DNA of 64,000 bases, from assembly GCA_013298775.1 (NCBI GenBank), contig JAAFIV010000003.1, forward strand, positions 141,460 through 205,459, given 5' to 3'. Both the position numbers and the translations under genes were made by a program. Below the pieces are notes generated by a model. The model did no database searches. It was not told the origin of the DNA and saw nothing but the letters and a program-made list of their open reading frames with translations. The stretch is from Ignavibacteria bacterium (GTDB taxonomy: Bacteria; Bacteroidota; Ignavibacteria; Kapaibacteriales; UBA4661). Shown piece after piece: positions 3,761 to 51,534 of this stretch; position 1 is the first letter of the stretch, and each line of letters begins with the position of its first letter.

Positions 3761-3835
3761 TTTACGATTATTTCAGAACAATTTTAGAACGATTTCAGAA
3801 CAATTTTAGAACGATTTCAGAATGATTTCACTGCA
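3761..3835. repeat. Tandem ~22-bp direct repeat (ATTTCAGAACAATTTTAGAACG x ~3.3) in the divergent promoter region between the SPOR gene and murG
   Basis: Direct reading: tttcagaacaattttagaacgatttcagaacaattttagaacgatttcagaatgatttcac. Confidence 0.8.
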
Positions 3836-11499: not shown

Positions 11500-12237
11500 A
11501 TGAAGAACATGAATAGAGAAATTCACTCCTGGTGGAGTCCTCGTTTGGACAAGCAAATGGAAATCGCTGTGTACGGACACTACGGACCAGCATTGCTGAT
11601 GTTTCCTAGTGCGGCGGCAGATTATCTCGAGTACGAGCGTTTTTACATGATTGATTCCATTGCGCCGTACATCGAGGCGGGCAAAGTAAAAGTTTTTTCG
11701 ATTAACAGCATCAATTCTGAAAGCTGGCTCAATCGCAAAATGGCTCCGCATCACAAGGCAATTCGCCACCAGTCGTACAATTACTACATTTTTGATGAAG
11801 TTGTGCCGTTTATCCATGCGCATTGCCAAACCCGCGTGCCGATTATCACAACAGGTGTTTCGCTCGGCGCGTTCCACGCCGTAAACGTCTTTTTCCGCCG
11901 TCCCGACCTCTTTGCGGGAACCTGCGGTATGAGCGGCGTGTACGACCTCAGCCAATACAGTGACGGCTTCTGGAACGAAGATTGCTACTTCAATTCGCCG
12001 ATGCACTATATGCCGAATCACACCGACCACTATCAACTTGAGCAAATGCGTCGCGGTAGCATTACGATTATGAGCGGGCAAGGCGCGTACGAGGCTCCCG
12101 ATGCGTCTCGCGCATTCTCTGGTGTGCTGAATAGCAAATCTATTCCGAATGAACTGGACGTTTGGGGCTACGATATGCGCCACGACTGGCCCACATGGCG
12201 AGCGATGTTGCCGTATTACTTGGAAACACATTTCTAA
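11500..12237 (+). CDS. Putative esterase (esterase D / enterochelin-esterase-like alpha/beta hydrolase)
   Basis: A GVSLGAFHA nucleophile-elbow-like motif and overall putative-esterase family pattern. Family-1 repeats flank it on both sides. Confidence 0.6.
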   Translation: MKNMNREIHSWWSPRLDKQMEIAVYGHYGPALLMFPSAAADYLEYERFYMIDSIAPYIEAGKVKVFSINSINSESWLNRKMAPHHKAIRHQSYNYYIFDEVVPFIHAHCQTRVPIITTGVSLGAFHAVNVFFRRPDLFAGTCGMSGVYDLSQYSDGFWNEDCYFNSPMHYMPNHTDHYQLEQMRRGSITIMSGQGAYEAPDASRAFSGVLNSKSIPNELDVWGYDMRHDWPTWRAMLPYYLETHF

Positions 12238-12247
12238 ATGTCAAATC

Positions 12248-12360
12248 TTCCCGCCCAAGCGGCTGAGGAGTGCAGGTACGGTGCCGTCCGGCGGGTGATT
12301 CCGTTTGTACAGCACTCGCCGGACGGCTACTGTGCGAGTGATAACAGCCGCCCGACGAGA
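12248..12360. repeat. Family-1 element, orientation B
   Basis: CCGCCCAAGCGGCTGAGGAGTGCAGGTACGGTGCCGTCCGGCGGG ... CTCGCCGGACGGCTACTGTGCGAGTGATAACAGCCGCCCGACGAG. Confidence 0.85.
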
Positions 12361-12425
12361 AAGACCAGCGACCAACTATAAAGCTCAAAAGCCTGATACA
12401 TACACGCTTTGAGCGTAAAAAATGC

Positions 12426-12475
12426 GAGGCTTTTCCTTCAATAATGCAAACGAAGGAAAAGCCTCACTTTCTTTT
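12426..12475 (+). terminator. Rho-independent terminator: 14-bp perfect stem GAGGCTTTTCCTTC / GAAGGAAAAGCCTC followed by CTTTCTTTT
   Basis: Perfect inverted repeat with a 12-nt loop, read directly. It sits downstream of the esterase gene and before gltB. Confidence 0.65.
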
Positions 12476-12610
12476 AAACTACTTTCCTGCTCCAAGCCCA
12501 GTATTTATCCTGCCTTCACGCCAAAAACACCTTCCATTCCCCTGCAACCCGTTTTCTGCTATTGACTTCTTCCTCTTTTTCCCTTACCTTTGTTACTCTT
12601 AAAGAAATAA

Positions 12611-12662
12611 GCGAAATTTCGCCAAAACTTAAAAAAGTACATTATTTCGCTCCGAGCGAAAT
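12611..12662. promoter_or_regulatory. Two palindromes sharing GCGAA/TTCGC half-sites (GCGAAATTTCGC and TTTCGCTCCGAGCGAAA), 50-100 bp upstream of gltB. Candidate operator.
   Basis: Palindromes read directly. The function is inferred only from the position relative to gltB. Confidence 0.35.
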
Positions 12663-12712
12663 AAAATTGTAAGAATATTTTCAGAATAACGCACCACATT
12701 TGAGGAATCGTT

Positions 12713-15700
12713 ATGAATTCTTCCGAATACTCTCCTTCCGAGCAAATCCCAAGCATCGCCGGAATGCCGCCAAAACAAGGCTTGTACGACCCCGCATTCG
12801 AGCGCGATGCCTGCGGTGTGGGCTTTGTGGCAAATATGAACGGCACTCCGTCGCGGGATATTGTTACCAAAGGCTTACAAATCCTGAAAAACCTGAAGCA
12901 TCGCGGCGCGACGGGCTGCGACCCGCATACAGGCGACGGTGCGGGCATTCTCATCCAGATACCGCATGAATTCTTCGTCCGCGTTTGCCGAGAGCCGCAA
13001 AACCTGATTGATGGCGGCTTCGAGCTTCCAGAGAACGGAAAATACGGCGTTGGAATGATGTTTTTGCCGAGCATCGTTGAAGAGCGAAAACGCTGCGTAA
13101 GCCTCATCACCTCTCGCTTGAAGGCGGAAGGTTTGACCGTGCTTGGTTGGCGGAATCCTCCCGTGAACGACCAAGTTGCGGGCGATGTGGCGCGTGCCTC
13201 GCAGCCTGCTATTCGCCAAGTGTTTGTTTCTGCGCCGCACTTGACGCAGGAACAGCTTGAAATCAAGCTCTACGTGGCGCGGCAGATGATGTCGAAAGAA
13301 ATTGTGCGTTTGGGTTTGGAGCAGGGAAATTATTTCTACGTGCCGAGTTTTTCCACGCGCACCATTTGCTACAAGGGCTTGCTGCAGCCCGAACAGATGG
13401 ATTCCTACTTCATTGACCTGAAAGCAAACGATTTTATTTCCGCGCTCGCCCTTGTGCATCAGCGTTTTAGCACCAATACCTTCCCCACGTGGGGTTTGGC
13501 GCACCCCTTCCGCTATTTGGCGCACAATGGCGAAATCAACACGCTGCGCGGCAACGTAAACTGGATGCGGGCGCGAGAAGCAATGCTGGAATCGCCCTTA
13601 TTTGGTGCGGATATTAAAAAAATTAAACCGATTATCACTGAAAGCGGTTCTGATTCGGCAATTCTCGACAACGCGCTTGAACTCTTGGTTCTGAGCGGTC
13701 GCTCCGTTCCCCACGCGCTGATGATGCTCGTGCCAGAAGCATGGGAAGCAAAAGCCGATATGAGCGAGGAATTACGCGCCTTCTACCAATATCACTCGAC
13801 GCTTTCCGAGCCGTGGGACGGTCCCGCCGCGCTGTCCTTCACCGACGGCACAATTATCGGCACTGCGCTCGACAGAAATGGTCTCCGACCCGCACGGTAT
13901 CTCGTTACGGAGGATGGCATTGTGGCACTGGCTTCGGAAGCGGGCGTGCTGGATTTCCCGCCCGAAACGATTGTCCGCAAAGGGCGCGTCGAACCCGGAA
14001 GCATGATGGTTGCTGACCTCACGGCTGGTCGCATTTTGGAAAATGAGGAAATCAAACGCACCATTGCAACGCGGCAACCATACGCCGAGTATGTAAAATC
14101 GCACGTTATTCGCCTTGAGCATTTGCCAGAAGCCTCATCGGAACTGGCTTCGTTGCCAAATCTTGCTGACAAAGAAACGCTTGTCGAGCAACAACAAGCA
14201 TTCGGTTATTCTGACGAAGACCTGCGTGTCATTTTGCAACCAATGTCGCAAAATGGCGAAGAACCTGTCGGCTCAATGGGAACCGACACGCCGCTTGCGG
14301 TCTTGTCCGAGAAGCCGCAGCTCCTTTCAAATTACTTCAAACAACTTTTCGCGCAAGTAACGAATCCGCCTATTGACCCGCTTCGTGAGCGGTCGGTGAT
14401 GTCGTTGAAAATTTATACAGGACGGCGCGGCAAGTTTTTGAATGAAGAATTTGACCCGCTCCGCTGTGATTTGGAGCTGGATTCACCGATTTTGACCGAC
14501 GACGAATTAGCGAAAATCAAGGCTCTGGGCAGCAATGCCGAATCCCCCCTCAATCAGACCCTCACCCCAACCCTCTCCCACAGGGAGAGGGCTTCAGAAT
14601 CTTCACCCTCGCCCTCTGGGAGAGGGTCGCTCGAAGAGCGGGGTGAGGGAAAGGCGCGAGAAATCACCCACAACATGAGTTCCGCAACGCTTTCCACCTT
14701 GTTTCCCATTGCAAAAGGCGCGGAAGGCTTGGTAAAAGCTCTCACCAGCCTTTGCGAGCAGGCGGAAGCGGTGATTGAAGAAGGACACGCGCTGCTTATC
14801 CTCAGCGATAGAGGCGTAAACAAGACCATGGCTCCCATTCCCGCGCTCTTGGCGGTTTCGGCGGTGCATCATCATCTCATCAAAACGGGCAAGCGGACGC
14901 AAGTGGGCTTGGTGGTGGAATCGGGCGAGCCGCGTGAAGTCATGCACTTCGCGCTGCTGATTGGCTATGGCGCGAGCGCAATCAATCCGTATCTCGCTTT
15001 GGGAACAATCAAGCATTCCTTCGCAGCCGCAAATGCAGTGGCGACGGTGCATGGAGCGGAGTTGTCCGCGCTTGGCAGCATCAAGGCTTTGACCGAAAAT
15101 TACCGCAAAGCCATTGGCAAAGGTTTGCTGAAAATTATGAGCAAAATGGGGATTTCGACGCTCATGTCGTACCGAGGAGCGCAAATTTTCGAGGCAGTTG
15201 GACTCAGTTCGCAACTCATTGACAACTACTTCCCCCGGACCCCGTCTCGCTTGGAGGGCATTGACCTTCGCCACATCGTGCGCGACGTGGAAACCTTCCA
15301 CAAACACGCTTTCCCCGCAAAGCCAGTTCTGAAGGCGCGTTCAGGCGCGTCGCTGCGTCGGTCGGGCTTGTACCAATGGCAGCGCGATGGCGAGTTTCAT
15401 GCCTACAACCCCGCATCAATCCACAAACTTCAGCAAGCAACCGCGCAAAACGATTACGCCGCCTTCAAGGAATACTCTGCACTCGTGAACACGGTGCAAA
15501 AGAAAAACGCGATGCTGCGTGGGTTGTTGGAGTTCAAGAAGGCAGATTCTATCCCGCTTTCGGAGGTGGAACCTGTTGAAGAAATTATGAAACGCTTTGC
15601 AACCGGCGCGATGTCGTTTGGTTCTATCAGCAAAGAAGCGCATGAAACCTTGGCGGAAGCAATGAACGCGATTGGCGGCAAAAGCAACACGGGCGAAGGC

Positions 15701-17506
15701 GGCGAGGACGCAGAACGCTTCGGGACAAATCGCCGCTCGGCTATCAAGCAAGTAGCGTCGGGGCGTTTCGGGGTTACGTCGCATTATTTGGTGAATGCGG
15801 ATGAATTGCAAATCAAGGTGGCGCAAGGCGCGAAGCCAGGTGAAGGCGGACAACTGCCCGGACACAAGGTAGATGCGACGATTGCGCGGGTGCGCCATTC
15901 CGTGCCGGGCGTTACGCTGATTTCGCCGCCGCCGCACCACGACATTTACTCGATTGAAGACCTTGCGCAACTTATCTACGACCTCAAAAATGCGAACAGC
16001 AAAGCCGATATTTCCGTGAAACTCGTCTCGGAAGTAGGCGTGGGCGTAGTAGCGGCGGGCGTTGCGAAGGCTCATGCGGATATGATTTTGATTTCCGGCT
16101 ACGACGGCGGCACGGGCGCGTCGCCGATAAGTTCCACGCGGCACGCGGGTATTCCGTGGGAAATCGGCTTGGCAGAAACCCAGCAAACACTTGTGCTGAA
16201 CGACCTTCGCGGGCGTGTGCGTGTGCAGGTGGATGGTCAGTTAAAAACGGGGCGTGATGTCGTTGTTGCCGCGCTTTTGGGCGCAGAGGAATTTGGCTTC
16301 TCGACCGCGCCGTTAGTAGTTTCGGGCTGTATTTTGATGCGCAAATGCCACTTGAACACGTGTCCTGTCGGCATTGCCACGCAAAAGCCTGAACTCCGCG
16401 CAAAATATACGGGCAAGGCAGAACACATCATCAATTTCTTCCGTTTTATTGCCGAAGAAGTACGCGAATTGATGTCGGAACTCGGCTTCCGCACCATGAA
16501 CGAAATGATTGGTCGCTCAGATGCTCTCAAACCCGCATTAGACCTTGCCGGCAAGGCGGCAACGCTGGATTTATCAGCAATTTTGTACAACCCGGGCGTA
16601 CAATCAAACAAACTCGACCTCGCCCAGACACCGCTTCGTTGCGTTTCTGCACAGGAGCATGGCTTGGAGGACGCACTAGACCACGAGTTGATTGCGCTCT
16701 CTCGTCCCGCGCTCGAATCCAAGCGGTCGGTGTCGTTTGATATTCGTATTCGCAATGTTCACCGCACGGTCGGTACATTGCTTGGAAGCGAGATTTCACG
16801 ACGCTTTGGTGAAGAAGGCTTGCCAGAAAACACCATCAATGCCACGTTCACGGGAACGGCTGGGCAAAGTTTCGGCGCATTCGTCCCGAAGGGCGTAACG
16901 ATGCGGCTTGTGGGCGAAGGAAATGATTATGTTGGCAAAGGTTTGTCGGGCGGAACGATTATTGTTGTGCCAAACCCCGCAGCCCGCTTCAATGCTGAGG
17001 AAAACGTCATTGCGGGCAATACAATTCTCTACGGCGCGACGAGCGGAACGGCGTTCATTCGCGGGCAGGTTGGCGAACGCTTTGCGGTGCGCAATTCTGG
17101 CGCGACGGTCGTCGTAGAGGGCGTTGGCGACCACGCTTGCGAGTACATGACAGGCGGAACGGTGGTGGTGCTTGGAAAAACGGGACACAACTTTGCGGCG
17201 GGCATGAGCGGCGGCGTGGCATTCGTCTATGACCCGCATCGCGCCTTCCCTCTGCGCTGCAATCACGAAATGGTGGATGTTGTGAATGTGTTGGATGCCG
17301 AGCAGCAAGAACGCCTGCACAGCTTGATTTCACGCCACGTTGAGCAGACGGAGAGCGCGATTGGCAAGCGTATTTTGGAGTCGTGGAATACGGCGGTGCA
17401 AGACTTCGCGCTCGTCTTCCCGCACGAGTACCGCAAATACTTGCAGCGCACTCGCCCACAACCCGCACAAACACTGGTAGAATTGGGCAAAGAACTTGCG
17501 GTGTGA
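12713..17506 (+). CDS. gltB: Glutamate synthase large subunit
   Basis: N-terminal CGVGFVA (Ntn amidotransferase Cys), central and FMN domains and a C-terminal GXGXG beta-helix. 1597 aa, including a ~32-aa repeat-derived in-frame insertion at residues ~616-647. Confidence 0.95.
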   Translation: MNSSEYSPSEQIPSIAGMPPKQGLYDPAFERDACGVGFVANMNGTPSRDIVTKGLQILKNLKHRGATGCDPHTGDGAGILIQIPHEFFVRVCREPQNLIDGGFELPENGKYGVGMMFLPSIVEERKRCVSLITSRLKAEGLTVLGWRNPPVNDQVAGDVARASQPAIRQVFVSAPHLTQEQLEIKLYVARQMMSKEIVRLGLEQGNYFYVPSFSTRTICYKGLLQPEQMDSYFIDLKANDFISALALVHQRFSTNTFPTWGLAHPFRYLAHNGEINTLRGNVNWMRAREAMLESPLFGADIKKIKPIITESGSDSAILDNALELLVLSGRSVPHALMMLVPEAWEAKADMSEELRAFYQYHSTLSEPWDGPAALSFTDGTIIGTALDRNGLRPARYLVTEDGIVALASEAGVLDFPPETIVRKGRVEPGSMMVADLTAGRILENEEIKRTIATRQPYAEYVKSHVIRLEHLPEASSELASLPNLADKETLVEQQQAFGYSDEDLRVILQPMSQNGEEPVGSMGTDTPLAVLSEKPQLLSNYFKQLFAQVTNPPIDPLRERSVMSLKIYTGRRGKFLNEEFDPLRCDLELDSPILTDDELAKIKALGSNAESPLNQTLTPTLSHRERASESSPSPSGRGSLEERGEGKAREITHNMSSATLSTLFPIAKGAEGLVKALTSLCEQAEAVIEEGHALLILSDRGVNKTMAPIPALLAVSAVHHHLIKTGKRTQVGLVVESGEPREVMHFALLIGYGASAINPYLALGTIKHSFAAANAVATVHGAELSALGSIKALTENYRKAIGKGLLKIMSKMGISTLMSYRGAQIFEAVGLSSQLIDNYFPRTPSRLEGIDLRHIVRDVETFHKHAFPAKPVLKARSGASLRRSGLYQWQRDGEFHAYNPASIHKLQQATAQNDYAAFKEYSALVNTVQKKNAMLRGLLEFKKADSIPLSEVEPVEEIMKRFATGAMSFGSISKEAHETLAEAMNAIGGKSNTGEGGEDAERFGTNRRSAIKQVASGRFGVTSHYLVNADELQIKVAQGAKPGEGGQLPGHKVDATIARVRHSVPGVTLISPPPHHDIYSIEDLAQLIYDLKNANSKADISVKLVSEVGVGVVAAGVAKAHADMILISGYDGGTGASPISSTRHAGIPWEIGLAETQQTLVLNDLRGRVRVQVDGQLKTGRDVVVAALLGAEEFGFSTAPLVVSGCILMRKCHLNTCPVGIATQKPELRAKYTGKAEHIINFFRFIAEEVRELMSELGFRTMNEMIGRSDALKPALDLAGKAATLDLSAILYNPGVQSNKLDLAQTPLRCVSAQEHGLEDALDHELIALSRPALESKRSVSFDIRIRNVHRTVGTLLGSEISRRFGEEGLPENTINATFTGTAGQSFGAFVPKGVTMRLVGEGNDYVGKGLSGGTIIVVPNPAARFNAEENVIAGNTILYGATSGTAFIRGQVGERFAVRNSGATVVVEGVGDHACEYMTGGTVVVLGKTGHNFAAGMSGGVAFVYDPHRAFPLRCNHEMVDVVNVLDAEQQERLHSLISRHVEQTESAIGKRILESWNTAVQDFALVFPHEYRKYLQRTRPQPAQTLVELGKELAV
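14558..14653. repeat. Family-4 composite palindromic element (CCCTCACCCC...GGGAGAGGG...GGGTGAGGG) inserted in-frame inside gltB
   Basis: Near-identical to the reverse complement of the intergenic copy at 22104-22216. A partial copy lies at 61953-62005. Confidence 0.8.
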
Positions 17507-17573
17507 GGGAAATTGTGTAGTTTATGAGAAGTTTCGTTTAAGCATTACTTTGTTCACTTTTTTGTTCAGCATT

Positions 17574-17807
17574 ATGGCTTCCATCATTCATTCCGACCCC
17601 GACATTCTTGGCGGAACGCCCGTTTTTCGCGGTACTCGTGTTCCCGTTGAAAGCCTTTTTGACCATTTGGCAAAAAGTATTCCTTTAGATGAATTTTTGG
17701 ATGATTTTCCAACGGTTTCCCGCGAACAGGCAGTATCTGTGCTGGAATCAAGTTCACGGCTTCTCCAATCTTTGACGGCATTGCACGATGAGAATCTTGT
17801 TGGATGA
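17574..17807 (+). CDS. DUF433-family small protein (antitoxin-like partner of DUF5615)
   Basis: 77 aa, IIHSDPDILGGTPVFRGTRVPVESLFDHL is typical of DUF433. It overlaps the downstream gene by 20 bp. Confidence 0.55.
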   Translation: MASIIHSDPDILGGTPVFRGTRVPVESLFDHLAKSIPLDEFLDDFPTVSREQAVSVLESSSRLLQSLTALHDENLVG

Positions 17808-18189
17808 AAATTTACCGAAAAAACTCAAGCGTGAATTTCCTCAGCATGAGATTTGGACAGCTCGTGAAAAAGGTTGGAATGGCAAGAAAAATGGTGAGTT
17901 ACTCGCGCTCATGTTGCAAGACGGTATTGATGTTTTGCTGACATTTGACAAGAATTTGCAGCACCAGCAAAATTTTTCAAAATATCCGATTGTCGTGATT
18001 GTCTTGAATGCTTTTAGTAATGATTATGCAGAATTGCTAGTAATGATTATGCAGAATTGCTGCCACTTATGCCCAAAGTACGCAATTTTTTGGATAATTC
18101 ACCACAAGCAGGAGCAATACTCCTTTCGTAAAGGTTCAGAATCCATATCAGTCAGGTTTTTTATTCACTTTTCCCTATTTGCAGTATGA
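17788..18189 (+). pseudogene. DUF5615 (Mut7-C/PIN-like) toxin-like gene, C-terminus frameshifted by a 23-bp tandem duplication
   Basis: The N-terminus MRILLDENLPKKLKREF... is typical of DUF5615. Removing one copy of the 23-bp duplication (18016-18061) restores the ending ...ELLPLMPKVRNFLDNSPQAGAILLS*. Confidence 0.5.
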
Positions 18190-18719
18190 AAACATTTTTT
18201 ACCAATCTTGCCAGTGCTGCTGCGCTTGCAGCCCTCATGTTTGCTTGTGCGCCCACGCCACCAACACCGCCCGCAGACTTTATTGCTGGCGATTCTAACC
18301 TCGTTAATGTTGCTTCGTCGTGGACGCGCATTGCGGGACCGTACATCGGCACGGCTGGACCAGATGGCTCGTTTCTTGGTGCAGCGCACCGCGTCGGCGA
18401 TACAACAGTTACCCGTACCGTGTATTCGCGGAATAATTTTGTCAGCATCAGCAAAGACGCGAGCAGTGGACGTTATCCCGTCGGAACGATGCTTGTGAAA
18501 CTCTTTCGTCGTCGCACAGACAGCACGGTTATTGGCGGCTCGATGATGGTTAAGCGTGGTGGCGACTTTGCTGCGGCAAACGCAACAGGCTGGGAGTGGA
18601 TTAACTTGAACGCGAGCGGGCAGGTTGCAACACGCTTCCGCAGCGATAGTGCTGCTGCTGCGTGCGTGGGCTGCCATCGTACGCGGATGTCGAATGATTA
18701 TTCTTGGTCGTTGAAGTAA
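18186..18719 (+). CDS. Secreted lipoprotein with a C-terminal CxxCH heme-c motif (possibly cytochrome P460/c'-beta-like)
   Basis: Signal peptide with a lipobox-like FAC. The single CVGCH motif sits 20 aa from the C-terminus, as in P460-family proteins. The family assignment is not verified. Confidence 0.35.
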   Translation: MKTFFTNLASAAALAALMFACAPTPPTPPADFIAGDSNLVNVASSWTRIAGPYIGTAGPDGSFLGAAHRVGDTTVTRTVYSRNNFVSISKDASSGRYPVGTMLVKLFRRRTDSTVIGGSMMVKRGGDFAAANATGWEWINLNASGQVATRFRSDSAAAACVGCHRTRMSNDYSWSLK

Positions 18720-18793
18720 TGTTGTTGCTTTTATTTTTCGCTATTCTGCTTGAGATACCTCAAACATCTTCAACATTGGCACTGATAAAACGA

Positions 18794-18840
18794 AAGCCCT
18801 TGATGACTGATTCTATCAGCTCTTCAAGGGCTTTTTCTTT
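18794..18840. terminator. Bidirectional terminator hairpin (AAGCCCTTGA ... TCAAGGGCTT followed by TTTCTTT) between convergent genes
   Basis: 10-bp perfect stem read directly. It lies between the + strand lipoprotein gene and the - strand methyltransferase gene. Confidence 0.6.
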
Positions 18841-18846
18841 ATACAT

Positions 18847-19953
18847 TTACTTCGCTATCAGAAAAAGAAACTCGTGGTTTGTGCCTTCTGCTTCTCGGAT
18901 CCATGCGTTTGTCCAGCGCATTTGCGCCATCACATTGCGCTTATAATCCACACGCCGCACATCAAGGATTTTCCCTGATTCTGACAGAATGTTGTGCAAA
19001 TCTTCTGCCGTCGCACGCCCGCCAGAACTGTACGACAGCACGATGTAACGAGCATTGGTGAGGCTAAGGAGGCGTTGCAAGGCTTCAACGGCGATGAATG
19101 TTCCGTTATCCGTTTGCCGAAATTCCTCAAAGATGGAAGCTGCTTGCGTGTCCCGCGAATCCTTGCGCCGTGCGGCTTTGCCAAAAATATGCGGTCGGTC
19201 GTTCAGGCAAATCGTTGTCCAGAGGTGATAGTAGGCGGCATAGCGCACCCGCGAGGGCGGCATTTTTTCATTGTTCGAGCCATATGGCGGGTCGAAGTAG
19301 GCAAGGTCGGCGTGGACGTGTTGGACAGTATCAAAAATGTTGTCGTGGTAGATTGTATGCGCTGTGTGGGAAGTTTTCTCAGGAGCAAGGAGGCGCGGAA
19401 GCGTGAGATGGAGTGCTTTGTAGGAGCGTGGCGACCACGCGCCCAAGTACGAGGCATAATGCCCAAGCGTGTTATCAACGCGGTCGAGAGCAAGAATCAG
19501 GCTTGTGATAAGGACAGAGCGTTCAATTTCTCCCACATTCAGGCGGTCAATTTCTTCGCGGATTGCGTCCAATTTGCGCGTGTTGTGGAGTTGCCAAGGT
19601 TTTTTCGCTTTTGCGGCAGTATTCGTGTCCGGCAGACCGCCATAATGCTCGCTAAACCAGCCATCCCTGCCTTGCACATTGTTCAAATAGTCCAGCAAGC
19701 CCTTATAATATGAGGCTTCGCGCCCATTTTTCAAATAACATTGTCCAAAGACTTTCGACCATACCGAAATATCATTAGCAATGACTTCATACCCCTGCTG
19801 TGCAAATGCCTGTGAAACCCGCGTCGTTCCTGAAAAGCCATCTAAAATTGAGCGAACACCCAAGGGCTGCACCATCTGAAGGATGTGCGGCAAGAGGCGT
19901 AGTTTCGAGCCTGCGTACTTGATTCCTTCGGTTTTGGGGCATTCGAGATTCAT
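18847..19953 (-). CDS. N6-adenine DNA methyltransferase, Dam/D12 class. No adjacent restriction enzyme is evident.
   Basis: N-terminal IKYAGSKLRLLPHI (KxAGxK AdoMet motif) and the catalytic AYFDPPYGS (DPPY). Start chosen at MNLECPK because the longer ORF start lies inside a family-6 repeat. Confidence 0.75.
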   Translation of the reverse strand: MNLECPKTEGIKYAGSKLRLLPHILQMVQPLGVRSILDGFSGTTRVSQAFAQQGYEVIANDISVWSKVFGQCYLKNGREASYYKGLLDYLNNVQGRDGWFSEHYGGLPDTNTAAKAKKPWQLHNTRKLDAIREEIDRLNVGEIERSVLITSLILALDRVDNTLGHYASYLGAWSPRSYKALHLTLPRLLAPEKTSHTAHTIYHDNIFDTVQHVHADLAYFDPPYGSNNEKMPPSRVRYAAYYHLWTTICLNDRPHIFGKAARRKDSRDTQAASIFEEFRQTDNGTFIAVEALQRLLSLTNARYIVLSYSSGGRATAEDLHNILSESGKILDVRRVDYKRNVMAQMRWTNAWIREAEGTNHEFLFLIAK

Positions 19954-19972
19954 TGTGTTTTGTACCGTAAAT

Positions 19973-20078
19973 TGATGTGAGGTTCTCACTTCCCGAGTGA
20001 GGTTCTCACTTTGTCGCTTTGAACGGCAGGCAGAACGTGAGAGCCTCGCTAGGAAGCGAGACCCTCACTCTTGCAAAT
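19973..20078. repeat. Family-6 repeat cluster (direct and inverted GTGAGRNYCTCAC units). Other copies at 39409-39536 and 51431-51534.
   Basis: gtgaggttctcacttcccgagtgaggttctcac ... gtgagagcctcgctaggaagcgagaccctcac. Similar unit structure occurs at all three intergenic loci. Confidence 0.75.
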
Positions 20079-22045: not shown

Positions 22046-22103
22046 GTTTGTCGAAGGCTTAAAGATGAAACAAAATTTTTGGTTGCGATAGATATTGGAG
22101 TGT

Positions 22104-22216
22104 TTCCCTCACCCCGCTCTTGCGAGCGACCCTCTCCCAAAGGGCGAGGGTTTTCCAAAGGCTTATTTTCTGAAGCCCTCTCCCTTTGGGAGAGGGTTGG
22201 GTGAGGGAAATTTAGC
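22104..22216. repeat. Family-4 composite palindromic element, intergenic copy
   Basis: TTTCCCTCACCCC...CCCTCTCCCAAAGGGCGAGGG...CCCTCTCCCTTTGGGAGAGGGTTGGGTGAGGGAAA. Confidence 0.8.
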
Positions 22217-29335: not shown

Positions 29336-29457
29336 GCTGGCGGTATGGTTTGTGGATAGGATTTTCTTATTTTTCAATATCGTAAAATTCTTGGAGACCA
29401 ATCTCTTTGAATGCGCTCTGTCCAAGACTTTTCCTGGAAAATAATCACCCAAAAACG

Positions 29458-31260
29458 ATGGCAAAAAAACGTTCACCCGCTCCCGCAACGACATCGGCTG
29501 CGCCTCGCGCCCCATTCGCATCTCGCTTTCTTTCCCGCTTTTCATGGTATCTTGTCCTCATGCCGCTTCTCACGCTGCTTTGGGGTTGGATATATTTTGA
29601 AAACGGTGAAATTATTGCGCTGAATAAAGGTTGTGGTTGGGACGGCGTAACCTACAAAAACGTTGTCTGGAGCTTGCAATGGAACAAAGCCCGCCCCGAT
29701 TACGCCGAGCGAAGCCGCTTGCGCATTGACCCCTACCGCGTACAGCGCATTGCACCAAGCGTGGCGGTGTATGGCGAGATGCAAGCCGCACGGTGGCTGT
29801 ATCAGCACGTAACGCCGATGTTTACTCGTGTTCCGGCGTGGTTGGAATGGAGCTACGAACAATATCCGCTTCCGCCGTGGTTTTTTCGGTGGTTTGCTGA
29901 TAATTCTATCAATTCAAACCAAGCGGCAAATGCCCAAAGCGTCGCACTGACGCTGGATAGCCTTGTTGCGGGATATTTCGTTTTTCACAGTTTGCTCATG
30001 CTGCTCGGAACGGCAGTGCTGTGGGCAATGACGGCGCGAAAGCTCAATCTTGGTGTAGCGGCGCGGTGGCTGGGCTTTTGCGGGCTTTTTGCGAATGTCG
30101 CCGTGATGAAAATGAGTTTGTATTATCCCACACTCACCGACACGACCGCGCTGTTTGTGGCAATGCTGATGCTGTATGCGTACATTGCCAACAGCGCGTG
30201 GTTGCTGCTTCCGGCGGCAGTGCTGGGCTTTTTTACCTTCCCGACGGCGATGTATGTTGCGGCGTTGCTGTTTCTCTTTCCGCGCAATATCGTTTTGCAC
30301 AATGAAGTAGCACCAGGAGAAGTAGCACCAGGAGAAGTAGCACAACCTGAAACACCAGCAATGACGGTCTTTGTACGAAATGTAAGCATTGGTGCGGTGG
30401 TGGTGGTATTGCTGGCAAGCGTGTATTTTGTGCTGATTGCAGAAGTGCGTTTTGTGGAGGTTGAGCCGCTTCAGCCGTTGTTGCTCATTCTCACGCTGCC
30501 CTTGCTCTGCGGGCAAGTATTCTTCACGGTTTCAAGGCTTGCAGCACAGTTTCCCGTGCAAGCGATAATGCGCCATTTCACGGAGCGCAAACATCTTGCT
30601 GGATACGCCCTGCGAGCCTTGATTTTGCTTGTTCTTTGGGCGGGATTGCTGTATTGGAAAAAGCAAATTGAAGACCCCACGCTTGCCGCGCCGATGAATA
30701 CAAGCCTATTTTTTGGTGGAAGTTTTGCCAGTGCGCTTGGAAAGCCCTTGTTGCCTGTGCTGGCGGGCGCGGTGTATTTTGGTCCAATTATTTTGGTGAT
30801 GATTCTTCGCTTTCGAGAATTTCTCAAAGCCGCATGGAATCTGGGTTTGGGCTATATGCTTGTGATAACGGCATTGCTGCTCATGGGAGCAATTATGTCG
30901 GAAACGCGGCAGCTTATCAATTTCTTGCCGTTTTTGGTGTTGGGTGTGGCGTACAGCCTTGATTCTGTCAGGCTTCCACGCATCGCGCTGGTGCTGTTCG
31001 CGCTTGTCGGCGTGATGGCAGCGAAAGTCTGGCTCCCGTTCAATTTTACAGGAATGGCGGAGCAAGCGGCAAACATCACAGGCGGCATCCATGCAACGTT
31101 TCCCTTGCAATACTACTTTATGAATCACGGACCATGGATGAGTTGGGCGAGTTATTTCCTGCAAGGAGCGTGTGCGCTTGTGGTGGCGGGGTTGCTGTGG
31201 TGGGTGCTGTCGCCGCAGTTTGCGGCGGAGTATGGGGAAAAGCAATCACAACAAAAATAA
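29458..31260 (+). CDS. Large polytopic membrane protein of unknown function with an internal (EVAPG)x3 tandem repeat
   Basis: More than 12 hydrophobic segments and a 15-bp coding tandem repeat at 30304-30348. The start position is uncertain (29407 or 29458). Confidence 0.5.
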   Translation: MAKKRSPAPATTSAAPRAPFASRFLSRFSWYLVLMPLLTLLWGWIYFENGEIIALNKGCGWDGVTYKNVVWSLQWNKARPDYAERSRLRIDPYRVQRIAPSVAVYGEMQAARWLYQHVTPMFTRVPAWLEWSYEQYPLPPWFFRWFADNSINSNQAANAQSVALTLDSLVAGYFVFHSLLMLLGTAVLWAMTARKLNLGVAARWLGFCGLFANVAVMKMSLYYPTLTDTTALFVAMLMLYAYIANSAWLLLPAAVLGFFTFPTAMYVAALLFLFPRNIVLHNEVAPGEVAPGEVAQPETPAMTVFVRNVSIGAVVVVLLASVYFVLIAEVRFVEVEPLQPLLLILTLPLLCGQVFFTVSRLAAQFPVQAIMRHFTERKHLAGYALRALILLVLWAGLLYWKKQIEDPTLAAPMNTSLFFGGSFASALGKPLLPVLAGAVYFGPIILVMILRFREFLKAAWNLGLGYMLVITALLLMGAIMSETRQLINFLPFLVLGVAYSLDSVRLPRIALVLFALVGVMAAKVWLPFNFTGMAEQAANITGGIHATFPLQYYFMNHGPWMSWASYFLQGACALVVAGLLWWVLSPQFAAEYGEKQSQQK

Positions 31261-39408: not shown

Positions 39409-39536
39409 TCTTGTGAGGCTCTCACTTCCTAGTGAGGGTCTCACTTCCTAGTGAGGGTCTCACTTCATCACTTAAAAGTAAAAAAGTGAGACCCTTAACC
39501 TGCGAAGACGCAGGAATTGAGAGCCTCACATTCGCC
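39409..39536. repeat. Family-6 repeat cluster (GTGAGGCTCTCACTTCCTAG x3 direct, then inverted GTGAGACCC ... GAGAGCCTCAC)
   Basis: Direct reading. It lies downstream of the TonB receptor gene. Confidence 0.75.
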
Positions 39537-40568: not shown

Positions 40569-41342
40569 ATGCTGAAATTCACATTGCCCACACACAAGAT
40601 TCTGTCAAGTGTTGAGGCTTTTTTTGTTGTCTATTGCGGATGCTGTTTGTTCCTGCTGGAAACCGCACCAGTGCTTGCGCAGTGGAGTCCCAATTCTCCT
40701 CGCGCTGAGCGTGCCTACGACGCACATTTGCAAGGCTACAATGCGCTTTTCCCTGCCGAACATGGCGCGTACTATATGCTTCCAATGGGTATTGCTTCTG
40801 GTGGCATGAGCGATGCGTTTGGGAGCAATCCTGCATATTTTTTTTCGGGTTTACCACGACAATGGTTCTTGCAAAGCACGATGATTCATTACGACCGTGT
40901 TATCATTGAAACCTTTCAAACAAGCGGTATTCTGCGCCTTGATTCGGCAGACACGGAAATAGCTACCTTCGGCAATACGCTTGGTTTCGGCTACATCGTT
41001 TTTGATACCACGCTCTCGCAAACAACCAAACTCAATCTCTTTCCTTTCCTCAGCACTGGCGTTCTGACGAGCCGCTTTTTTCAGCCGCGCATCACCTTCA
41101 GCGCGAGCCTGAGTGCGCTTTATACGATTGATATTTCTCAGCGTACTGCAATGCGGCGCAATGTAGGATTTGCTGTGCCAATTCGCATAGATATTGGCTA
41201 CACACGGCATTATACCGCCGTGCAGTCTGGCTTGGAAGATATTGGTGACGGTGGAGGCGTGTTTTTGCGCGTGAGCGTGGGCATAGGACCGCATTATTCG
41301 GCGGTTGTAGCGGGGACATACGACACGGTTGTACAGGAATAA
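40569..41342 (+). CDS. Hypothetical secreted or outer-membrane protein
   Basis: Signal-peptide-like N-terminus (MLKF... CGCCLFLLETAPVLAQ). No recognised family. Confidence 0.35.
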   Translation: MLKFTLPTHKILSSVEAFFVVYCGCCLFLLETAPVLAQWSPNSPRAERAYDAHLQGYNALFPAEHGAYYMLPMGIASGGMSDAFGSNPAYFFSGLPRQWFLQSTMIHYDRVIIETFQTSGILRLDSADTEIATFGNTLGFGYIVFDTTLSQTTKLNLFPFLSTGVLTSRFFQPRITFSASLSALYTIDISQRTAMRRNVGFAVPIRIDIGYTRHYTAVQSGLEDIGDGGGVFLRVSVGIGPHYSAVVAGTYDTVVQE

Positions 41343-41400
41343 TTGGAATAATTGGAATAATTAGAATAATTGGAATAATTAGAATAATTAGAATAATTCC
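41337..41400. repeat. Tandem 9-bp repeat (GAATAATTR) x7
   Basis: ggaataattggaataattggaataattagaataattggaataattagaataattagaataattcc. Confidence 0.85.
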
Positions 41401-46712: not shown

Positions 46713-46780
46713 GAACAGACAAGAGTGTCTGTTCTACCGAAGCCAAGTATTTGTCTGCTATTTGTCTGCTATTTGTCTGC
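46713..46780. repeat. Partial family-3 hairpin (GAACAGACAAGAGTGTCTGTTC TACCGAAGCC) followed by an 11-bp tandem repeat (TATTTGTCTGC) x3, upstream of nusA
   Basis: Direct reading. Confidence 0.75.
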
Positions 46781-51430: not shown

Positions 51431-51534
51431 TGTGAGTTTGGTGTGAGGGTCTCGCTTCCTCAGCGAGGCTCTCACTTCCTCACCACAATCTATTACCGAA
51501 GTGAGACCCTCGCTTGAGAAGCGAGAGCCTCACA
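51431..51534. repeat. Family-6 repeat cluster
   Basis: gtgagggtctcgcttcctcagcgaggctctcacttcctcacc ... gtgagaccctcgcttgagaagcgagagcctcacacc. Confidence 0.75.

Follow-up and report, generated by a model that had tools for sequence, protein, structure and literature searches.

Background

Gene pairs that combine a PIN domain protein with a COG2442 (DUF433) protein have been predicted to represent type II toxin-antitoxin systems (PMC2701414); for one such PIN-COG2442 pair, VapBC10 (ssr2962/slr1767) of Synechocystis sp. PCC 6803, the toxin was found to arrest the growth of E. coli and the DUF433 protein to neutralise it (PMC3834315). COG4634 belongs to the Mut7-C-like group of the PIN superfamily, a group of potential toxins without a solved structure that are paired with DUF433 (PMC5499597). 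Loci with a disabled toxin and a retained antitoxin have also been described, e.g., Shigella yacB, which carries a frameshift, and a Caulobacter parE pseudogene, and most orphan antitoxins of Klebsiella are what is left of degraded systems (PMC7354431). Our literature search found no experiment on the DUF433/DUF5615 subfamily, and the terms toxin and antitoxin are used here for the putative functions that the family-level literature suggests for the two members of this pair.

We analyzed a 64-kb stretch of DNA (the window) from a Kapaibacterium-like genome, which carries, flanked by gltB on one side and a gene for a cytochrome P460 on the other, what appears to be a chromosomal pair of a DUF433 (COG2442) antitoxin and a DUF5615 (COG4634, Mut7-C-like PIN) toxin. 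Overall, we consider it likely that this module has suffered a recent, frameshifting duplication of 23 bp, with its toxin probably inactivated and its antitoxin intact.

A 23-bp tandem duplication in the DUF5615 gene

The features of the locus, with positions in the window, are as follows.

17574-17807, + strand: intact DUF433 (COG2442) gene, encoding a putative antitoxin of 77 aa (Pfam PF04255, 62.6 bits, E = 3e-17)
17788-18189, + strand: frameshifted DUF5615 ORF (COG4634-type, PIN-like) of 133 aa (translation and Pfam; identical to database protein P0003)
18016-18038, + strand: copy 1 of the 23-bp unit AGTAATGATTATGCAGAATTGCT (sequence and Tandem Repeats Finder)
18039-18061, + strand: copy 2 of the 23-bp unit, which adds 23 nt (frame +2) and is absent from the orthologous DNA of loci L002 and L003
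18062-18131, + strand: stranded remnant of the 3' end of the toxin gene, now out of frame (tblastn)
18186-18719, + strand: downstream cytochrome P460 gene (Pfam PF16694, 32.6 bits)

The unit AGTAATGATTATGCAGAATTGCT occurs twice head to tail, with 23 of 23 positions identical, and these are the only two occurrences of this 23-mer in the window. Tandem Repeats Finder reported the array at 18015-18061 (period 23, 2.0 copies, 100% matches, score 94); since a T is found at each of positions 18015, 18038 and 18061, the repeat has a phase ambiguity of one base, and this single T is the only microhomology at the junction. By our arithmetic (0.26^23 x 6.4e4), about 1e-9 perfect 23-bp tandem copies would be expected by chance in 64 kb. 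The perfect tandem duplication claimed in a first-pass annotation of this DNA was thus borne out, with both copies free of mismatches, and translation of the ORF reproduced exactly the aberrant C-terminal tail that the same annotation had quoted.

As 23 is not a multiple of 3, the reading frame shifts after Leu84, and the 133-aa ORF consists of 84 native DUF5615 residues followed by an out-of-frame tail of 49 aa (residues 85-133). Deletion of one copy in silico yields a protein that ends in ...NDYAELLPLMPKVRNFLDNSPQAGAILLS (C-terminus ...PLMPKVRNFLDNSPQAGAILLS), followed by a TAA stop codon at 18129-18131. This restored protein is of typical DUF5615 length, as had been proposed, but comprises 106 aa rather than about 107 aa. 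When the restored protein was compared to the window by tblastn, residues 1-87 matched in frame 1 (17788-18048) and residues 77-106 matched at 100% in frame 3 (18039-18128), a two-frame pattern that is the classic signature of a duplication with frameshift. The stranded remnant runs from the last base of codon 84 through codon 106 to the TAA stop, and its codons 85-106 are 73-77% identical to those of orthologues. The ORF thus shows the features by which a pseudogene is recognised, i.e., a frame disrupted relative to close homologues, an unconserved tail and a recognisable remnant in the original frame. No paralogue of the toxin gene or of the DUF433 gene was found elsewhere in the window.

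Programmed ribosomal frameshifting was considered as an explanation for the two frames and rejected; it would need a -2 or +1 shift, which would still add 7-8 residues, and homologues carry no such site.

Other perfect or near-perfect short tandem repeats were observed in the window at 3770-3830, 30304-30343, 41336-41398 and 46748-46780. Among these, a 22-bp unit (2.4 copies) and a 9/27-bp array are intergenic or located at gene ends, a 15-bp unit (2.7 copies) lies in frame within a 617-aa ORF (29407-31260), and an 11-bp unit (3 copies) overlaps doubtful ORFs only; none obviously frameshifts a well-supported gene. In addition, the intergenic motif GAGGSTCTCACTTCCT forms a 19-bp tandem array (2.8 copies, 39413-39466) and is found again at 51465 inside a second tandem array (51445-51482), i.e., it represents a dispersed short repeat.

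Family membership and conservation of the toxin

The first-pass assignment of the toxin ORF to DUF5615 was confirmed, as the protein exceeded the gathering cut-off of PF18480 (23.8 bits) both restored (25.0 bits) and as found (26.2 bits), by a small margin of about 1-2 bits. A match to PIN_10 was weak (17.5 bits, below the cut-off of 26.2). Searches with NCBIfam and PADLOC models yielded no match for either the toxin or the DUF433 protein. A search of 5.8 billion proteins returned 1794 homologues of the toxin, nearly all of them 105-114 aa long and most already annotated as PF18480; many carry names such as "DUF5615 family PIN-like protein" or "predicted nuclease of predicted toxin-antitoxin system". 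The family length (about 105-115 aa, single domain) is reached by the toxin in the window only after removal of one repeat copy.

In an alignment of 57 sequences, D6, E7, N8, T52, F53, D54, N56, Q60, Q61, N62 and F63 are invariant, and the corresponding family motifs are all present in the toxin, i.e., an N-terminal acidic LLDEN (D-E-N), TFDxN (T-F-D-x-N) and QQNF (Q-Q-N-F). The restored C-terminus fits the conserved columns of the same alignment, with L83 and L86 invariant and L94 and G101 conserved in at least 90% of the sequences. The long tail, for which conservation in homologues had been named as grounds to doubt an inactivation, is absent from all 56 aligned homologues.

The single-copy state in homologues and the age of the duplication

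The closest homologues of the restored protein, P0001 (85% identical; Logan SRR30909882) and P0002 (79% identical; Candidatus Kapaibacterium sp. GCA_004292595.1), both comprise 106 aa, and alignment of their DNA to the window shows one clean 23-bp gap exactly at the duplication. Among 85 homologous genes at 80 loci from GTDB representative genomes, 81 encode proteins of 106-113 aa. Judged from these sequence comparisons, the single copy is the ancestral state and the duplication is derived.

Comparison of the window to the Kapaibacterium orthologue yielded a dN/dS of 0.14 for codons 85-106, i.e., the stranded 3' end, and of 0.12 for codons 1-84. The low value in the stranded 3' end indicates that this region was under purifying selection until recently, which, together with the identity of the two copies, suggests that the duplication is recent.

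Synonymous divergence from the Kapaibacterium orthologue is saturated in the 3' three-quarters of the toxin gene and not in the flanks. Specifically, pS (the proportion of synonymous differences) jumps within the gene from 0.30 (codons 1-28) to 0.57-0.77 (codons 29-106; window 17870-18130 versus 5083-5320 of L003), as compared to dS values of 0.20-0.27 for the antitoxin gene, 0.32 for gltB and 0.45 for the P460 gene. This pattern suggests a recombination patch or an allele replacement over the 3' three-quarters of the toxin gene.

Predicted structure of the restored and the frameshifted toxin

An AlphaFold2 (AF2) model of the restored protein, built with the 57 homologues, showed an alternating beta/alpha fold (pLDDT 90.8) with strands at residues 2-5, 21-24, 49-52, 69-73 and 101-105 and helices at residues 11-16, 35-45, 55-59 and 80-95. 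In the frameshifted protein, the last helix (80-95) loses about 11 of its 16 residues and the final strand (101-105) is lost entirely, both being replaced, after Leu84, by the 49 unrelated residues. In the AF2 model of this mutant, residues 1-90 are still built confidently, and blocks of 10 residues from residue 91 onward have mean pLDDT values of 54, 35, 51, 32 and 38. According to these models, the fold of the frameshifted toxin is probably no longer completed, in which case the putative nuclease toxin would most likely be inactive or strongly attenuated. Because it is fold elements and not the active site that are lost, this loss of activity is an indirect conclusion; the invariant polar and acidic residues (D6, E7, N8, D54, N56 and Q60-N62), which are candidate catalytic residues, are all encoded upstream of the frameshift, and some residual activity may thus be retained. 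The initial proposal that the putative toxin was recently inactivated or attenuated is nevertheless supported by an ancestral single copy and by the loss of a conserved C-terminus. By analogy with the described systems, we would expect the restored 106-aa protein to be toxic and the frameshifted one not.

PDB searches with the restored toxin, either as a single sequence or as a profile of 57 sequences, yielded only chance matches (GFP, S100), and a Foldseek comparison of the AF2 model to the PDB yielded no hit below E = 1e-3, only generic Rossmann-like folds (best E = 0.028) with no PIN structure among the top hits. As no significant PDB match was found, the assignment as a PIN-like nuclease rests on Pfam and the literature.

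The DUF433 partner

The DUF433 protein scores 62.6 bits against a cut-off of 23.6 bits, and its 77 aa agree with a domain length of about 70-80 aa. It is 94.8% identical over these 77 aa to the Kapaibacterium orthologue (L003), so that the partner is indeed intact, as originally described. A search against PDB sequences found nothing at E <= 0.01. The module consists of two small, co-oriented, overlapping genes with the antitoxin gene first, as in L003, and in both the DUF433 gene overlaps the start of the toxin gene by the same 20 nt. Overall, a DUF433 ORF adjoins 83 of 84 surveyed homologous toxin genes. The patchy, mobile distribution in varying contexts by which toxin-antitoxin modules are recognised was also observed, with toxin homologues across many Bacteroidota and also in Acidobacteriota MAGs.

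Genomic context

The order gltB, DUF433, DUF5615, P460 is common to the window and Ca. Kapaibacterium sp. (L003), with these genes showing 90-92% DNA identity, and the region 11519-18719 of the window shows, segment by segment, 90-95% DNA identity to this Kapaibacterium MAG. This conserved order and identity indicate that the module resides in the chromosome of this lineage and has been inherited vertically. The P460 gene is the last syntenic gene; it is followed by gltD in the relative and, in the window, by a gene for a D12-class, type II-like adenine methyltransferase and then accC, accB and efp. In L002, which carries the closest toxin homologue, the downstream gene differs from that in both L003 and the window; a functional link of the pair with gltB and P460, which was also considered, was rejected in view of this different neighbour. 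Simple promoter and terminator scans performed no better than shuffled controls.

The extended toxin ORF reads through the former 54-nt spacer up to the P460 gene, where its TGA stop codon (18187-18189) overlaps the P460 ATG (18186) as ATGA.

Two further observations were made on the neighbouring genes. The D12-class N6-adenine DNA methyltransferase gene (18847-19989, - strand), which scores 81.7 bits with Pfam and is recognised by PADLOC as a type II MTase (E = 1e-149), is located at the exact synteny break; as its next neighbours are accC, accB and efp and there is no evident gene for a restriction enzyme among them, the methyltransferase is probably an orphan. The gltB gene (12713-17506) shows 97.3% protein identity to the Kapaibacterium orthologue except for an in-frame insertion of 120 bp (40 aa) at 14540-14659, which is GC-rich and strongly palindromic, with the ends CCCTCACCCC...GGGGTGAGGG and a predicted RNA fold of -64.2 kcal/mol (z = -4.5). 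The accB-efp spacer holds another copy at 22103-22201, with aligned segments 96-97% identical. This insert resembles a palindromic element of the MITE or REP type that has entered the gene of a highly conserved enzyme without disturbing its frame, and it is reminiscent of the Rickettsia palindromic elements.

Discussion

Our data can best be explained by a single event. Misalignment during replication or repair, i.e., a slippage mechanism, would have duplicated 23 bp of the toxin gene within codons 77-84; unrelated residues would thereby have taken the place of most of the last alpha-helix and of the final beta-strand, and the shifted ORF would have crossed the former intergenic spacer to stop on the ATGA at the P460 start. 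With its fold incomplete, the putative nuclease would be inactive or strongly attenuated, and the antitoxin gene would be unharmed.

This explanation requires that the duplicated allele is real. The sequence stems from a metagenome-type assembly, and an artefact of sequencing, library preparation or assembly, or a consensus that represents a minority variant, could have hidden an organism that mainly carries an intact 106-aa toxin gene. The 133-aa product is recorded (P0003) on an NCBI contig that is 226,566 bp long, and the only other record of the allele, a Logan assembly of SRR9948932, carries both copies and is 100% identical over 2399 bp (window 16663-19061), so that two different assemblers agree; as the two assemblies may share reads, this agreement excludes an assembler artefact and leaves a library artefact or minority variant. 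With k = 31, the array contains no repeated k-mer, and its 29 junction k-mers are absent from the single-copy allele. Since a de Bruijn assembler cannot invent such k-mers, the reads must carry the junction, which again makes an assembler artefact unlikely; the bias of de Bruijn assemblers is, moreover, to collapse tandem repeats and not to create them. Also, the further perfect short tandem repeats of the window lie between genes or keep the reading frame and thus give no sign of an artefact that systematically hits genes. Conspecific sequences with one or two copies were not found in the collections searched: an exact-pattern scan of metagenome contigs gave 0 matches for either allele, only the window's own product was closer than 85% among the 5.8 billion proteins searched, and the GTDB representative genomes searched do not include the genome of the window. 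Overall, we consider an artefact or minority variant very unlikely, and the duplicated allele is presumably fixed in the population, although a single-copy allele may coexist with it.

If the allele is real, the tailed protein could still be active or partly active, with the duplication neutral or attenuating, or the extension could have been selected because the ATGA overlap would create termination-reinitiation coupling to P460. An active tailed toxin would fit with the upstream position of all invariant polar and acidic residues and with the confident modelling of residues 1-90, and coupling would fit with an extended ORF that stops exactly on the P460 start codon. However, the segment lost from the toxin holds the conserved L86, L94 and G101 as well as a core strand, and a comparable tail occurs in no homologue. 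As to coupling, we estimate that an open run of 49 codons ending at ATGA has a chance of roughly 5-10% in that frame, so that no selection is needed to account for the extension, and the orthologous locus works uncoupled, with a spacer of 52 nt. We thus regard the ATGA overlap as a coincidence, and both an active tailed toxin and an extension selected for coupling appear unlikely. Slippage or recombination can remove one of two perfect tandem copies with precision, and the duplication could therefore also represent a reversible switch that toggles toxin expression through precise loss of one copy, as in phase variation. The two copies, being perfect and adjacent, would indeed be a substrate for precise reversion, and reversion would restore the full gene, as the downstream remnant is intact. 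On the other hand, the duplication is a single observation from one sample, a single-copy conspecific allele was found in no database searched, no homologue carries a repeat-prone tract at the site of the duplication, and the lesions in other disrupted members of the family are ordinary nonsense mutations or frameshifts of 1 nt and not repeats. A reversible switch, or a selected change that silenced the toxin and at the same time coupled the extended ORF to P460 through the ATGA, is thus highly improbable. An ordinary inactivating duplication remains the explanation that we favor.

Disrupted toxin genes occur elsewhere in this family as well, with other, independent toxin-disabling lesions at about 5% of related loci in our survey of GTDB representative genomes. 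The DUF5615 gene of a Chitinophagaceae MAG (L025, 6001-6330) carries a TAG at codon 4, that of the Terrimonas pollutisoli isolate genome (L049, 6001-6375) carries a C-terminal frameshift that yields 124 aa, and the second copy in a Cytophagaceae MAG (L079, 5399-5713) carries an in-frame stop near codon 65; in all three, the DUF433 gene is still adjacent. A degraded DUF5615 fragment was found in L070. To our knowledge, a cell tolerates the decay of such a pair only if the toxin is inactivated before the antitoxin. What is described here is an ordinary, expected fate of such modules; only the type of lesion, a duplication of 23 bp, is unusual.

Annotations should list this ORF as a frameshifted DUF5615 pseudogene and not as a 133-aa protein, and the DUF433 gene would therefore effectively represent an orphan antitoxin. 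The locus provides a clean natural example of the order in which toxin-antitoxin modules are expected to decay, with the toxin lost first and the antitoxin retained, and the duplicated and restored alleles are a ready matched pair for a toxicity test of DUF433/DUF5615. Beyond annotation, the event matters little.

Comparison with known systems

Like VapBC10 of Synechocystis, the module described here is chromosomal and has a small DUF433/COG2442 gene followed, in the same orientation, by a small PIN-type gene. It differs in that its toxin is frameshifted; this toxin is of the DUF5615/COG4634 Mut7-C-like type, which VapC10 may or may not share, and the two systems are likened by description and not by sequence. 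VapBC45 of M. tuberculosis (Rv2018/Rv2019), a DUF433-PIN_10 pair, shares the combination of a DUF433 antitoxin with a Mut7-C-like PIN toxin (PMC5499597, PMC2701414). However, the toxin in the window, with its weak PIN_10 match, stays below the cut-off (see above), and, whereas Rv2018 carries an additional winged-HTH fusion (PMC2701414), the antitoxin in the window is a bare DUF433 protein of 77 aa. With the COG4634/DUF5615 (PF18480) family itself, the toxin agrees in Pfam score, in length after restoration, in its invariant motifs and in its pairing with DUF433, and it differs from the family in the 23-bp duplication and the non-homologous tail of 49 aa. With regard to its decay, the locus resembles degraded toxin-antitoxin loci (yacB and parE as well as L025, L049 and L079) in that a small lesion affects the toxin and the antitoxin is retained; it differs from these in the type of lesion, which is a tandem duplication of 23 bp instead of a nonsense point mutation or an indel of 1 nt.
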